NCBI GenBank assembly: GCA_963751345.1
Contig: CAVVUS010000032.1
Coordinates: forward strand, 1-64,000
Length of the DNA stretch: 64,000 nt
DNA from: an uncultured Chloroflexia bacterium
GTDB lineage: Bacteria; Chloroflexota; Anaerolineae; B4-G1; SLSP01
Reading direction: 5' to 3'
Below the pieces are notes generated by a model. It made no database searches. It worked only from the letters and a program-made list of their open reading frames with translations, and was not told the DNA's origin. Made by a program: the position numbers and the translations under genes. Of this stretch, positions 9,527 to 27,930 are shown one piece after another (position 1 is the stretch's first letter; every line of letters begins with the position of its first letter).

Positions 9527-10868
9527 CTAAGGTTCCTCATCGTGAGATGGGAACTTCCGCTCCAGAAAGCGACTGTGGATCAGGAGCCGCTGAGCGTCGT
9601 CCAGCGGCCGGCGCTTGGCCAGGTCGTCGAGCGCGCCGAGGAGCAAGTCGAGCTGATGGTTCAGCTGGGCGCGCGCCGTCTGCCCATCGCGAATCGGCTC
9701 GTGCGTCGCAAAATCGTGAGGAAGCGCGCGGTAGGCCGTCAGTGCCTCCGGCAGATACCCGCGCACGGTCTGGCGCACGAGGTAGGCGTCGGGATCGCCG
9801 CCGGCCAGGTTCTGCATGTGCGGGAGAAGCTCCGCAAGGGCCGCCTCGATCGCACCGAGGCGCTCGACGACGGCGGGCGGCATGTCGGCGCGCGCATCGC
9901 GCACCAGAGCGCGCATCTCGTCTGCCAACTGCGCGCGCAGGGCCTCATCCGGGGTGCCCGGGACGGTCGGCAGCGCGCGCGGCGCGGCGGAGCGTGTGAG
10001 GCGGTAGACGCGCTCTCCCACGAGCCCGGCACCGGCAGCGCCGGCGAGCGACAGGGCCGCGCCGGCAAGCGGACCCAGCAGCGGAAAAGCCACGACCCAG
10101 GCCGCCGCCAGCGCCGCACCCAGCGTGCTCAGCCCGGCAAGTGTCGCAAGCCCGAGCCGTCCCGGCGCTGCTACCTCGGCGTAGAGAACGCCGGTACGCT
10201 GCAGCGAGTCGATCCCGGCGAGCCAGGCCTGGAAGTCCGGGGCTGGGACGTTCCAGCAGGCGTGTGTGGCTGAAATCGAACGCCGCCAGACCGGTGAGGT
10301 TGGTCAGGTCCGCGGGGAGCGGGCCATTGAGGTCATTCTGCGCCAGGTTCAGGCGCACCAGGTGGGTCAGACGGCCCAGCTCAGGCGGGACTTCGCCGCT
10401 GAGGCGGTTGTCGGAGAGGTCAAGGACCTCGAGCGCCGTCAGGTCGTGCAACGCGGCAGGGATCTCCTCGGTCAGGGCATTCCCGTGGAGATCGAGCGTG
10501 CGCAGCCGCTGGAGCAGGCGAAGCCGTGTGGGCAGAGGGCCGTGGAGGTCGTTCTCGGCCAGGTTGAGCGTGACCAGCGCGCGCAGATTGCCGACGGCAG
10601 CGGGAATGCGTCCCGTCAGCCGATTGCCGGAGAGGTCAAGCTCGATGAGGTAGGCAAGCGACCCGATCTGGGTGGGCAGCGTGCCCGTAAGGCCCCTGTG
10701 GGGCAGCGCTAGCCCGGTGACGCGACCGCGCTCACACGTGACACCGGCCCACGTGCACGGGTCGCTTCGCTCCAGCCAGCCTTCACGCCCGGTCCACGTC
10801 TCCCCGCCGGTCTGCCGGTAGAGCGCCTCAAGCGCCCGCTGTTCGGCGGGCGAAATCCAGATGGTCAT
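9527..10868 (-). CDS. LRR - transmembrane hairpin - XpaC-like fusion protein; frameshift near 10245
   Basis: LRR N-cap (WLERSDPCTWAGVTC) and about 7 24-aa LRRs. After a frame change it reads PDFQAWLAGI (LRR C-cap), two hydrophobic helices, then VRQTVRGYLPEALTAY...RFLERKF. Confidence 0.7.
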
Positions 10869-10933
10869 CGTCTCCTGCTTCGGACGCCTGCGCGCCGTCT
10901 CCGCACAGACACCCGCCATCCCCACACCACGTT

Positions 10934-12139
10934 CTACTCAGGCGCCTCGGTCTCCTCAATCGCCAGCAGATCGCCGGTGGTATCCAGCGCCTGCTCGCTC
11001 CGTACGCGGTCGAGATAGGTCGTGGCGCGCTGCACCTGCGCTGAGAGCTGGGCAGTCGTCTGCCTCATCGTCTCCAGCGCAGCCTGCTTGTATGTGGAGA
11101 TACCGTCGAGGGTCTGGAAGACATTGTCGAAGGCGGCTTGCAGCTGCTCCATCCCGACTGTGGCCTCTGTCGACTGGCGATACGTCTGGGTAGATTGCTC
11201 TCTGAGCAATACCGAGGTCGATGCGATCAGGCTCGATGTCGTGTCGTTGAGCGCGGAAATCTGGTCCAGCACGAGTTTCTGGTTGGCCAGTGCCTGAGCG
11301 ACGATGACCGCGGTGCGCAGCGCCGAGATGGTCGTGGTCGTGGCCCGCTCCACGCCCTTGATCAGTTCCAGATCGTTCCTCCGGATCACATCGAGCCCCA
11401 GGTAGCCCTGGACACTCACGGCAAGCTGGGTCAGCAGATCCTGCTCCTTCTGGCGCACATAGAACAGGACTTCCTCGCGCACCACCCGCGCCTTCTCCGG
11501 GTTGTCGACCGCGATCTCGCTGAGACGCTGCTCCAGCGCGCTGTCCAGTTGCCGGCACGCGTGGATGAGCTGCTGAAGGCGCCCCATGATCTCCCACAGG
11601 TTGGCCTTTTCCTGCTCGATGGCGGCAATATCCCGCTCCAGCTCGTCCTGGCTGTGGTGCAAGCTGTTCAATACAGCGTCAATGTGGCTCTGAGCAGACT
11701 CGTACTTGCGAAAGTAATCTGTGACGTGCGTGCCCAGCGGGATGATCCCCAGCAACTTGCGCTCCGAAGCGTCGCGCTCGGAGGGATCCAGCGCCTCGAC
11801 CGTGCGGCGAAGTGCCAGCAGTGCCGTGCCCACGTCGGAGTCGTCACTCAGCCCGCGGACCGGGCGGTTGAGCAGCCGATTGGAGACATTGGCGGCCTCG
11901 CGGATCTCGCGGGTACCCAGGGCGTGGATGGCGTTGATGCGAGACTCGAACTCCTCGCTGTGGACGTCCGCCTCGGTCAGGGCCTCGACAAGCGCCTCGA
12001 CGCGGGCATCAACCCGCGCGAGCGCGTCCGCGTTGGGTTGAGCACCCAGGGGAAGCATCGCCTCGGCCTCAGGTCCCGTGACCGGACCGACCGGCTCGGG
12101 CGGGGTCAGCGGCTCAATCGGTTTCTTCGGTTCGGCCAT
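10934..12139 (-). CDS. telA: Toxic anion resistance protein (TelA/KlaA/YaaN family)
   Basis: KLLGIIP, YFRKYESAQSHI, QDLLTQLAVSVQGYL, TTTISALRTAVIVAQALANQKLVLDQI. Confidence 0.9.
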   Translation of the reverse strand: MAEPKKPIEPLTPPEPVGPVTGPEAEAMLPLGAQPNADALARVDARVEALVEALTEADVHSEEFESRINAIHALGTREIREAANVSNRLLNRPVRGLSDDSDVGTALLALRRTVEALDPSERDASERKLLGIIPLGTHVTDYFRKYESAQSHIDAVLNSLHHSQDELERDIAAIEQEKANLWEIMGRLQQLIHACRQLDSALEQRLSEIAVDNPEKARVVREEVLFYVRQKEQDLLTQLAVSVQGYLGLDVIRRNDLELIKGVERATTTTISALRTAVIVAQALANQKLVLDQISALNDTTSSLIASTSVLLREQSTQTYRQSTEATVGMEQLQAAFDNVFQTLDGISTYKQAALETMRQTTAQLSAQVQRATTYLDRVRSEQALDTTGDLLAIEETEAPE

Positions 12140-12147
12140 CACACACC

Positions 12148-13242
12148 TCACACCGGGATCACAAACGGCGCCCTGCTCAGCTCGCTCAGCGTGATGCACC
12201 CCGAGCCCGAGACCGCGACGTCGTCCTCGATGCGAACGCCGCCAACGCCCTCCAGATAGACTCCCGGCTCGACCGTGAACGTCATACCTGGCTCTAGCTG
12301 CAGCGGATTCCCCGCGACGATGTACGGCGGCTCGTGCTCCTCCAACCCCAGGCCGTGGCCGGTACGATGGAAGAAGAGCGGCCCATACCGGGTCGCGTCG
12401 ATCACAGCCCGCGCGGCCGCGTCCACAGCCCGCGCCTCGATGCCCGGCCCTACTGCAGCCCGCCCCGCCGCGTTGGCCTCGACCACAATGCGGTGGACCC
12501 GCAGAAGCGGCTCCGTTGGCTCTCCCACCGTCAGCATCCGCGTGAGATCCGAGTCATATCCGGCGACCTTCGCCCCCCAATCGACCACCACCCAGTCGCC
12601 CCGCTGGAACAGGCGCTCCCCCGGCACAGCGTGGGGCAACGCGCCCCGTGGTCCGCTCGCGATAATCGGATCGAACGCCAGGCCATCCGCCCCACTGCCC
12701 AGCAGCGCCCCCACCAACTTGGAGGCCGCTTCGCGCTCACTGATCCCCTCGCGAAGCATGGGACCCATGCCAGGAAGGCCTCTTCGGCAACGCGCACCGC
12801 CCGCCGCATCGCATTGAGCTCGTCGGTCGACTTCGTCATCCGGAGGTCGGCATATAGATCGTCTACCGGCACGAGCTCGACGCCAGGGGCAAAACGCTCC
12901 AGGATGCCCGACTCGAGCAACCGCATCCGCAGCGCCTCCACGCCGATGCGGGCATCGGCCAACTCCAACGCGGCGCAGGCCTCGTGGAAGGCCATCCGGT
13001 ACCCGTCCTCGTCGTTGTACGTGAACGTCTCAAAGCCGGCCTCGACGGCCTTCCCGGCCTCCAGCTCCGGCAGCACAATGCACGGAAGGCGCGTCGACCG
13101 CCATCAACGCCACGATCGGCCGTTCGCTCAGAAAGAACGACATCCCCGTGGCGTAGAACAGGTTCGGCCCCGGAACGAGGGCCAGTGCGTCAAGTCCATC
13201 CGTCTCGGCTGCCGCCAGTGCCAGCTCAAGTCGCTCGTGCAA
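12148..13242 (-). CDS. Xaa-Pro aminopeptidase (M24B); frameshifts near 13080 and 12765
   Basis: LRMTKSTDEL, ALPHA, YDSDLTR, HRTGHGLGLEEHE, TVEPGVY, GVRIEDD spread over three frames. Confidence 0.9.
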
Positions 13243-25812: not shown

Positions 25813-27930
25813 ATGCCGATACATAGGTCAGTGAACGGTTTGAACCGCCTCCTCCTCTCTGTGGCCGTCGGAAGCGCCCTGATCGCCGGCGTCCTCGTCA
25901 TCGCCTCCACGCCGGCGCGCGCCGAAGACGTGCCGCCCCAGCCCGACGTGACCACAACCGCCGGTCTCTTGGGCACGTGCTACGCCAACTACGCCACCGC
26001 GAGACCAGGATCTTGGCCCCCTGGCCTACCGCGCGGGGTCCCGTTGGGATCGCATAGACTTCAGCTGGAGCGTGCTGCAGCCCAGCCGCGACCAGTGGAA
26101 CTTCGAGCCCTACGACGATCTCACCGACCGGCAGCTCGGATACGGACTCGACATGATCGGGATCCTGGGGTCCACACCGACCTGGGCCTCCCCCGACTGC
26201 CGGGCCGTCGCGAAGTCCGGCGCCCTGCCGCCAGCCTTGCAGGGAAACCCCTCGACGGCCATCCGGCCCAACCAGGCCGATGGATGGCAGGCCTGCCCGC
26301 CCCAGGGCCTCTATCTCGACTGGAACGACCCCGGCAATCTGTGGGGCAGCTTCGTCTACACGACCGTGAGCCGCTACGCCGGAAAGGTCAACGTCTGGGA
26401 GATCTGGAACGAGCCCGACCTCTGGAACTGGTTCTGGCAGGGCTCGGTGGATGACTACGCGCAACTTCTGCGCGTCGGCTATCTGGCCACCAAGGCCGCC
26501 GACCCCAACGCCACGGTGCTCTTCGCCGGGCTGGCCTACTGGGCCAACCCCGCCTACTACGTCGCCGTTCTGGACGCGCTCCAGAGCCTGCCGGGCGCCG
26601 CGCAACACGATTACTTCTTTGACGTGATGTCCCTGCACCTCTACAGCAACGTCTACCAGATCCGTCCCATCGCCGCCGAAATCCAGGCCAATATGGCCTC
26701 GCGCGTCGGGCCGCACCCCATCTGGCTGACCGAGACCGGCGTTCCGCTGTGGGACGAATGGACGTCGGGCTTTCCCGAGACCTACAAGATCAACCGCGCG
26801 ACCGCCGAGGAGGCAGCGGCCTATGTGATTGAGGCCTTCTCCGAGGCTCGCTCCATCGGGATCGAGCGCTTCATCGTCTTCAGGACCCACGACGAGGCGA
26901 TGAGCGGGCCCGGCGGCCTGCCGGAGTACTTCGGCCTGGTTCGCAACGACCTGACGCTGCGCCCGGCCTACAGCGCCTTCCAGACCGCGGCGACCTATCT
27001 CTACGGGGAGAACCAGGTCACCGGCCCCTTCTCGAACGAGGGCATTCGCCGGATCACCTTCTGGGGCACCCCGCGCGGGCGCATCGACGTGCTCTGGAAC
27101 ACGACCGGCGCCCCGGTCACCTTTGGCCTCCCCGCCTATCTGCCTGAGGCCACCGCCGTCACCTACCGTGGCATGACCTCGACGCTCTCCGCCGCGAGCG
27201 GCGTCTACACCTTGACGCTCGCGCCGGCTACCGCCAATACCGCCGCGGATGGCAGCTACCTCATCGGCGGGCCGCCCGTCCTCGTGATCCAGGCCGACAC
27301 CCAGCCACCGACGTCGTCGCTCCATCCTCTGCCCTCGGTAACCTTCACGTCCGGCGTCACGCTGAGCTGGGACGTGATCGACGAGGGCACCGGCTACTGG
27401 TACGCCGAGATCGAGCGCGCCTCCGCACCCACGGGGCCGTGGACCACGGCAGCGGGCTGGGGCGACACCGATGACGCCATCACCGCCGTCGTGCCGGTCA
27501 CGACCTCCGGCACCGCCTACTTCCGGCTGCGCGCTCGTGACAATGCGGGCAACTGGGAAGCGTGGCCCACGACGGCTGAGGCATCGACCCGCGCCATGCT
27601 GACCCGCACCGTTGCCCTCTCAGTGACCGCTTCTTATGCCGGACACCATCGGGGAGCATGTTTCCGGGCCTACGCAGTGGAGTTCGTCTGGGCCGACGCG
27701 GCTCGGGACACGTCATCAGCACAAGCCGAGGAACCGTCAGGCCTGGCAGATCACGCAGACCGTTGATGCCGGGCAGCTACCTCGTCACCGCCCGGGCACC
27801 CGGTACGCTTATGGCCGTCCACCGTTTTGACGTCACGCCCGGCATAGCCCCGCTCACCGTCACCGCCACGCTGCCGCTCAAGCTTATCGTCGCCAGCGTC
27901 TATATGCCCATGGTCATGCGTGGTCCCTGA
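25813..27930 (+). CDS. Secreted clan GH-A glycoside hydrolase (GH5/GH39-like) with C-terminal beta domains; frameshifts near 26000 and 27650-27720
   Basis: Signal peptide ending PARA, WEIWNEPD (acid/base), IWLTETG (nucleophile), FN3-like FRLRARDNAGNWE, terminal SVYMPMVMRGP. Confidence 0.78.

Follow-up and report, generated by a model that had tools for sequence, protein, structure and literature searches.

In the 64,000-nucleotide stretch of an uncultured Chloroflexia genome that we analysed (contig CAVVUS010000032.1, positions 1 to 64,000; hereafter the window), two genes stand together on the minus strand from 12199 to 9527: telA, followed by a single gene that joins a plant-type leucine-rich repeat (LRR) region, a hydrophobic hairpin and a C-terminal helical domain. 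Our reading, to which we give a probability of roughly 60%, is that these form a two-gene module, that the second product is a protein of ∼447 residues once one extra base at 10243/10244 is ignored, that its C-terminal domain falls within a large, as yet unannotated family of TelA-associated proteins with two transmembrane helices (2-TM proteins), and that LRR and helical domain are both cytoplasmic. An earlier interpretation made by a model from the letters alone, the sequence-only reading, had described an XpaC-like partner of TelA fused to a plant-type LRR; all the features that it named are present, on the minus strand, by Pfam matches, translation and alignment to the locus of a congeneric genome (G002).

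The telA gene occupies 10934..12139 of an open reading frame (ORF) spanning 10934-12199 on the minus strand, with a probable ATG at 12139, a stop at 10934-10936 and a product of 401 residues. This product matches PF05816 (TelA) over profile positions 2-332 of 332 (E 5.8e-87, 292.3 bits against a cut-off of 30), is 89% identical to its G002 orthologue, and shows neither a signal peptide nor a hydrophobic segment in its sequence. A six-frame search of the 5.4-Mb genome returned the window copy as the sole TelA (293 bits). From the telA stop, 65 bases lead to ATG 10868, the probable start of the fused gene, which opens with MTIWISPAEQ and has AGGAG a few bases upstream; the fused gene ends with a stop codon at 9527..9529 (minus strand). 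Scanning for promoters and terminators, we found no terminator and no visible break between telA and the fused gene, and a single sigma-70-like site (9444-9417) that lies ahead of the downstream greA. On either side of the pair is a housekeeping gene, that of an M24 peptidase upstream and greA downstream, in an order that is kept in G002, and the G+C content of the window is 61-72%.

The first frame of the fused gene (10244..10868, minus strand) encodes an N-terminal cap, six 24-residue plant-type repeats and the start of a capping repeat, as judged by the Pfam LRR models and a structure model. The N-terminus reads MTIWISPAEQRALEALYRQTGGETW...DPCTWAGVTC, the latter motif forming the cap, before the six repeats begin. 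Over the LRR-bearing ORF (9945-10925, minus strand), LRR_1 scores 68 bits, LRR_8 60, LRR_4 60 and LRR_14 56, each above its cut-off, while LRRNT_2 scores 18.5 bits in the window, just below its cut-off of 20.7, and passes that cut-off in the family representatives P0001 (24.9 bits) and P0003 (21.5 bits). The orthologue alignment and the structure model put the number of repeats, previously estimated as about seven, at six full 24-residue repeats and a seventh that caps them. The C-terminal cap motif, PDFQAWLAGI (10211..10240, minus strand), is read from translation of the second frame, and its Q, W and L are invariant across 11 orthologues.

Modelling of the G002 orthologue gave a predicted local distance difference test (pLDDT) score above 90 in most 10-residue blocks of the LRR. 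A Foldseek search with this modelled region returned 451 matches at E≤0.001, with E values down to 1e-15, and the best-ranked matches listed were all plant LRR proteins (MIK2, PSKR, FLS2, ERL1, SERK1, SRF6, PGIP and an ice-binding protein); SERK1 and SRF6 gave a TM-score of 0.84-0.88 on the target at 30-38% identity to the LRR. Because the best-ranked matches listed are plant proteins, the label 'plant-type' is correct. The region shares its 24-residue repeat type and LRRNT_2-like cap with plant LRR receptor ectodomains (SERK1, SRF6, ERL1, FLS2, MIK2, PGIP), yet the protein that carries it is bacterial, has no signal peptide and no kinase, has a membrane hairpin behind the LRR, and is probably intracellular. 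Identities with Xop-type effectors and internalins, suggested by NCBIfam matches, were rejected, the scores being 23-61 bits against cut-offs of 450-1600 and reflecting LRR similarity only. One other LRR locus was seen in this genome (G000:C40:68338-69153, minus strand), within an open frame of 858 residues, and is 38-46% identical to the window LRR.

The second frame, shifted by +1, is open from 9530 to 10303 on the minus strand and reads '...PDFQAWLAGIDSLQRTGVLYAE', followed by a hydrophobic stretch of ∼48 residues centred on PLLGP, by the helical domain and by the terminal RFLERKF. Kyte-Doolittle analysis places the hydrophobic hairpin at 10013..10156 (minus strand; residues 15-62 of the C-terminal piece) as two transmembrane helices around a P-x-x-G-P turn. 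The helical domain (∼140 residues; 9554..9952, minus strand) was delimited by profile, motifs and model, and is marked by YLPxxLxxYxxLP, G-x-TA...QL and RFLxxKF.

Whether this combination recurs was addressed by searching all six frames of 61 related genomes, the C-terminal frame serving as query. Matches were found in 17 of them (the window's own genome, G000, counted), all in the window's own family: 16 of 36 in that family had a match, and two sister families had 0 of 12 and 0 of 12. In 14 of the genomes other than G000 the match lies within an open frame of 440-513 residues, and we examined 11 of these 14. In every one of the 11 orthologues, cap, LRRs, hairpin and helical domain lie in a single open frame (441-479 residues, 53-60% identical to G002), which bears out the claim that the LRR and the 2-TM helical part are one gene. 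Since the architecture is conserved at this identity in 11/11 orthologous loci, it is no chance feature. Such proteins stand beside telA in the other genomes too, telA being directly upstream on the same strand in 11/11 (at L010 and L011 the locus holds just the last 36 and 62 residues of the telA product).

Beyond these genomes, the protein database contains 13 clusters of 447-479 residues that cover at least 97% of the query; the named ones are 'hypothetical protein', one of them from an 'Anaerolineae bacterium' metagenome-assembled genome. Of 201 genomes sampled evenly from the phylum, 18 have the domain; one of the 18, G098, is marked unpublished and was given no weight here. Outside the window's genome the open frames in this sample (116-374 residues) are too short for an LRR fusion. 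In the genomes and databases that we searched, the LRR fusion was thus found only in one Chloroflexota family. No LRR-XpaC or LRR-TelA fusion is described in the open-access papers searched, in keeping with the sequence-only reading, which knew of no described system with this architecture. We conclude that the protein with LRR, hairpin and helical domain is real, and that it represents a form of the TelA/XpaC-like pair restricted to one lineage.

The helical domain matches no Pfam or NCBIfam family, so we built a family profile covering hairpin and domain from 12 sequences and searched it against proteins clustered at 50% identity. It recovers 1,235 clusters at E≤0.001, and 604 at E≤1e-10. 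A typical member is a 2-TM protein of ∼190-235 residues in which the domain occupies residues ∼65-205 behind the two-helix hairpin, and the motifs YLPxxLxxYLxLP, GKTAxxxLxEQLxLL and DxxxLxxxGRFLxxKF run through the family. An AlphaFold model from a 72-sequence alignment is a helical bundle with a mean pLDDT of 86, most of the domain lying above 90. Fold and sequence searches of solved structures with the domain returned generic helical bundles only.

We scanned with Pfam 78 of 150 listed representatives of the family, taken from the top of the list together with longer proteins further down. Among these 78, PspC is the fusion partner of the domain in 12, LRRs in 8, and a HisKA_3-HATPase_c kinase (P0012), Laminin_G_3 and VWA in one each. 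The PspC fusions (P0014, P0096, P0013, P0034, P0042 and 7 others) are proteins of ∼280-465 residues with an N-terminal PspC followed by one or two helical domains. Kinase fusions were also seen in congeners, at L077 303-3128 (plus strand; G003:C101) and L078 90-2282 (minus strand; G010:C63); these HAMP/HisKA_3/HATPase_c kinases of 730-941 residues carry the helical domain at their C-terminus, while no kinase-fused copy was found in the window's own genome with this query. These PspC proteins and HisKA_3 kinases have one copy of the helical domain, or tandem copies, behind PspC or a kinase core, whereas the window protein has no PspC and no kinase domain (PF04024, PspC, is not matched in the window proteins). 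The range of partners, LRR, PspC, histidine kinase and vWA, marks the domain as a modular adaptor, and a link between the phage-shock system and this family of TelA partners, by way of the PspC fusions, is possible.

Using an alignment of 10 sequences for a pattern scan of the GTDB species genomes, we obtained 40 confirmed loci of the wider family, spread over Chloroflexota, Actinomycetota, Pseudomonadota, Acidobacteriota, Dormiibacterota, Deinococcota and Bacillota. In 22 of the 40 a TelA gene stands within 5 kb, its product 48-60% identical to the window TelA: directly upstream in 10, upstream with one gene between in 11, and downstream in 1. In this respect the C-terminal domain is of a kind that accompanies TelA, as first proposed, the same family standing beside TelA in 22/40 loci of seven phyla. 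The intervening gene encodes a lipoprotein of ∼520-550 residues in 10 of the 11 loci that have one (in the eleventh, L053, the ORF picked was off-frame), and all four of the lipoproteins scanned are SBP_bac_11-VWA fusions. The helical domain is accordingly often part of a three-part module with TelA and an exported binding-protein/vWA protein.

This three-gene module, telA / SBP_bac_11-VWA lipoprotein / 2-TM helical protein, was seen in Pseudomonadota, Actinomycetota and Chloroflexota (L028, L031, L045, L047, L051 and others). An annotated example is carried by the Sphaerotilus plasmid NZ_CP035710.1 (289749-293279; L061), where TelA is followed by a vWA protein and then by a hypothetical protein of 226 residues. 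Such modules share with the window the C-terminal domain family (E to 1e-35 and below) and the TelA partner. They differ in that the exported SBP_bac_11-VWA protein has its own gene and the 2-TM protein is short, at ∼200-275 residues, while in the window's family telA and the anchor are not separated by such a gene, and the anchor has instead a fused, apparently cytoplasmic LRR. In the clade L020-L026, which has no TelA nearby, the domain gene of L026 is preceded by a divergent SBP-VWA lipoprotein gene, and a similar lipoprotein frame of ∼600 residues is found at this place in all three further loci examined. In a Bacillus genome (Bacillus sp. N5-665, NZ_CP093325.1; L060, 3842-5863) TelA is followed by a membrane protein of 277 residues that belongs to DUF3974 (253 bits), not to XpaC; the record has zero PF10112 matches, is 5.5 Mb long, is filed as a plasmid and carries 25 annotated features.

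How far the protein may be called XpaC-like depends on what is compared. We take the XpaC build to be a two-helix membrane hairpin at the N-terminus with a cytoplasmic helical domain behind it, and this build is matched, by hydropathy, charge, model and the short family members, as is the XpaC type of telA adjacency (11/11 orthologues and 22/40 wider-family loci). To this extent the name given by the sequence-only reading stands; where it does not stand is the Pfam family of XpaC, PF10112 (XpaC/Halogen_Hydrol), whose threshold is reached neither by the window protein nor by the scanned representatives. A six-frame search with PF10112 returned nothing on the window locus at E≤1, and the family is absent from the 25 families listed for the 72 aligned members. 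Nor did six-frame searches find a canonical PF10112 gene in the 201 genomes of the phylum (E≤0.001), or a canonical PF10112 sequence in the genome G261 or 151 genomes of its phylum, and tblastn of TelA against plasmids led to none either. Below threshold, PF10112 is matched in 3 of 26 family members (12-14.6 bits, E 0.033-0.2), and all three weak matches are colinear, protein residues ∼80-197 aligning with profile positions 77-184. A homologue search with a weakly matching member recovered only 'hypothetical protein' entries without Pfam domains. The ESM Atlas gives leads only: for the C-terminal piece the nearest cluster (0.93) is auto-named after XpaC, as '5-bromo-4-chloroindolyl phosphate hydrolase', and has no common Pfam family, and the nearest named clusters (scores 0.82 and 0.75) are all PF10112. 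We think it reasonably probable that the helical domain is a remote homologue of XpaC, and we file the fused protein as XpaC-like in build and context, not as a member of PF10112.

The XpaC-TelA (YaaN) pairs of Firmicutes offer a comparison. In B. subtilis (xpaC-yaaN), L. monocytogenes (lmo1966-lmo1967) and E. faecium (xpaC-telA), telA likewise lies beside the gene of a small hairpin/helical membrane protein, whereas in the window telA comes first, ∼225 LRR residues precede the hairpin, and PF10112 stays below threshold. The Firmicutes pairs have a published link to envelope-acting antibiotics (PMC6811118; PMC12791056, the latter for the Listeria pair), and deletion of xpaC in E. faecium is reported to alter daptomycin binding and lipid domains only where telA is intact (PMC6811118). 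By analogy, this dependence would fit an anchor that restrains or positions TelA.

Several results weigh against our reading and should be considered together. PF10112 (gathering score 29.8 bits) is unmatched by the 258-residue frame of the window at E≤0.1, and is present in 0 of the 78 family representatives at E≤0.01. Of the 40 family loci, 18 lack TelA; 6 of these have too little flank to tell, and because the other 12 show no TelA over an upstream flank of at least 3 kb, the helical domain is a recurrent but not an obligate partner of TelA. Foldseek, which matched the LRR to plant LRRs when each domain was searched, found no significant fold match for the helical domain in the PDB at E≤0.001 (best E 0.23), and a profile search found no solved sequence relative (best E 0.032), giving no tie to a mechanism. 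Within the hairpin, the second hydrophobic helix is rich in Gly and Ala, and the modelled membrane part is weak, with a pLDDT of 29-39 in the model of the G002 orthologue and a single long helix in the 72-sequence model. Lastly, the two contigs of a public run that cross the frame break (X1, described below) stem from a relative, with short sides of only 19 and 14 bases against a bridging criterion of 31.

The weakly modelled membrane part bears on the placement of the LRR. Rather than forming a hairpin, the hydrophobic segment might cross the membrane as one helix, N-terminus out, so that the LRR senses outside the cell and signals to TelA inside. The repeats are of the plant ectodomain type with a Cys-containing N-terminal cap, other members of the module use exported sensors, the second helix is only weakly hydrophobic, and the models are unsure over this part of the protein, all of which would suit an extracytoplasmic LRR. 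Set against these points, none of the 11 orthologues has a signal peptide or hydrophobic N-terminal signal, and ∼220 folded residues would need to cross by their N-terminus. The hairpin (∼48 residues) has an uncharged loop whose central P-x-x-G-P is invariant (P39, G42, P43), and the short family members show two clear hydrophobic helices behind a basic N-tail. In G002, moreover, the first of the two cap cysteines is replaced by Gly, a loss that would fit a reducing compartment. We therefore regard an LRR outside the cell as rather improbable.

We infer instead that LRR and helical domain are most likely both cytoplasmic, as the sequence-only reading had also supposed, because there is no signal peptide, ∼220 folded residues lie ahead of the hairpin, and the C-terminal flank of the hairpin is positive (2-7 K/R in the orthologues). 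The cytoplasmic side of the helical domain is further indicated by the kinase fusions, which put the same domain behind a cytoplasmic catalytic core.

The integrity of the fused gene turns on a one-base insertion at 10243..10244 (minus strand), identified by alignment to G002 and to contigs of a relative. Past '...FDFSHTRLLERP' the first frame becomes an Arg-rich tail that is apparently out of frame. Against the 80%-identical G002 orthologue, the window has exactly one extra base here (CCCAGCCCC against TCCA-CGCC), agreeing closely with the frameshift predicted near 10245; relative to the G002 gene, the remaining gaps are one of 6 bases ahead of the probable ATG and two, of 9 and 6 bases, at the extreme 3' end. 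In run X1, two contigs from a relative that is ∼96-97% identical cross 10243/10244, and both are one base shorter there; no public sequencing run held more than 0.15 of the stretch's sampled words.

Were the frameshift real in the strain, the locus would hold a pseudogene, or would be expressed in two parts, an LRR cut short and ending in a junk tail, plus a 188-residue protein starting at GTG 10093. The extra base is indeed present in the assembly as given and lies outside any long homopolymer, and the 188-residue ORF was called by a gene caller (P0002); yet a start at GTG 10093 would split the hairpin mid-way, and the extra base is missing from the close relatives (G002 and the X1 contigs). 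Most telling is that a tblastn comparison of intact open frames from the syntenic 75 kb of G002 with the window shows 21 frame-change junctions in 64 kb. Because there is one such indel per ∼3 kb, and housekeeping genes are struck too, it is very likely that the break is an assembly artefact and the fused gene whole, and we give a real frameshift little credence. We rejected programmed frameshifting, since breaks of this sort occur in unrelated genes at 20 further sites.

If the fused gene is whole and its product arranged as we propose, the hairpin would set LRR and helical domain on the cytoplasmic face of the membrane, where the helical domain would most likely couple soluble TelA to the membrane and the LRR would present an added cytoplasmic surface for binding a protein or ligand. 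The LRR might in this way supply the input or scaffold for which other lineages rely on an exported binding-protein/vWA lipoprotein with a gene of its own, or on PspC, histidine-kinase or vWA parts fused to the helical domain. A complex prediction for TelA residues 41-401 with the soluble helical domain (residues 64-223) scored 0.24 against a mark of 0.32, and speaks neither for nor against binding. A sensor role for the LRR is conjecture. In its boldest form the fused protein would be an intracellular receptor resembling those of pattern recognition, whose LRR binds a cytoplasmic protein or peptide (a phage product, a toxin or a misfolded envelope precursor), whereupon the helical domain, as a general TelA-coupling module, releases or assembles TelA at the inner face of the membrane. 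We consider this receptor scheme unlikely as it stands.

A related proposal, already raised by the sequence-only reading, is that the pair serves in defence against phages or toxins, with the LRR recognising an invader protein and TelA acting as effector. In its favour, LRRs serve recognition in the innate immune receptors of plants and animals. Genes of the TelA/Ter group have also been proposed to stop the entry of phages or xenobiotics (PMC7824862). Searching PADLOC-DB 2.0, we found 0 families at E≤0.01 for TelA, the full-length G002 orthologue, the C-terminal piece of the window, and a short member with its vWA partner (0 of 5 proteins), so that the suggested defence role found no backing there; in PHROGs, the only matches were a 'tellurite resistance' family (TelA) and LRR families of unknown function. 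Furthermore, the locus lies between housekeeping genes whose order is kept in the congener, not in a variable island, and the genome has just one other LRR locus. A dedicated defence function consequently seems to us a slim prospect. Least credible of all is that the fused protein acts in an unrelated process and lies beside telA without functional significance, since telA, although single-copy, is directly upstream in 11/11 orthologues and TelA lies near the domain gene in 22/40 loci of seven phyla, even if there is no interaction evidence for the two proteins and 18/40 loci show no TelA nearby.

Under our own reading, a two-gene module of TelA and a cytoplasm-facing membrane partner, the main value of the locus lies in the helical domain, whose alternative fusions open a way into TelA function. 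TelA is widespread and tied to tolerance of tellurite, nisin and daptomycin, and outside Firmicutes its usual membrane partner is this large domain family (1,235 clusters at 50% identity), for which there is no Pfam model. The varied fusions (LRR, PspC, histidine kinase, vWA) may act as a Rosetta stone that identifies the domain as a coupling module, and those with PspC would tie TelA to envelope stress systems of the phage-shock type. The LRR fusion is a compact two-gene version that could serve to probe the recruitment of TelA and to seek a ligand, and the receptor scheme, if true, would give a direct handle on TelA's role.

Two minor observations concern the hairpin-coding region and the quality of the assembly. 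A contig of run X2 has 32 other letters in place of window positions 10047-10111, within the hairpin-coding part, and probably comes from a more distant relative with a different hairpin loop. As to the assembly, the junctions found by tblastn against G002 lie at 118, 4249, 10236, 12753, 13087, 15230, 17189, 17316, 20425, 22915 and 26002, and, further along, at 26084, 29912, 30925, 34060, 36139, 37839, 41251, 49749, 60646 and 62647. Named by their G002 versions, the genes struck include those for MutL, an M24 peptidase, a CDP-alcohol phosphatidyltransferase, ABC ATPases, CbiM and a histidine kinase. The assembly is apparently rich in indel errors, and other frameshifts in this genome should not be taken as biology. 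Directly upstream of telA, the gene of the M24 (Xaa-Pro type) peptidase (12148-13242, minus strand) is spread over three frames by the breaks at 12753 and 13087, and its G002 orthologue is a single open frame with Creatinase_N and Peptidase_M24.

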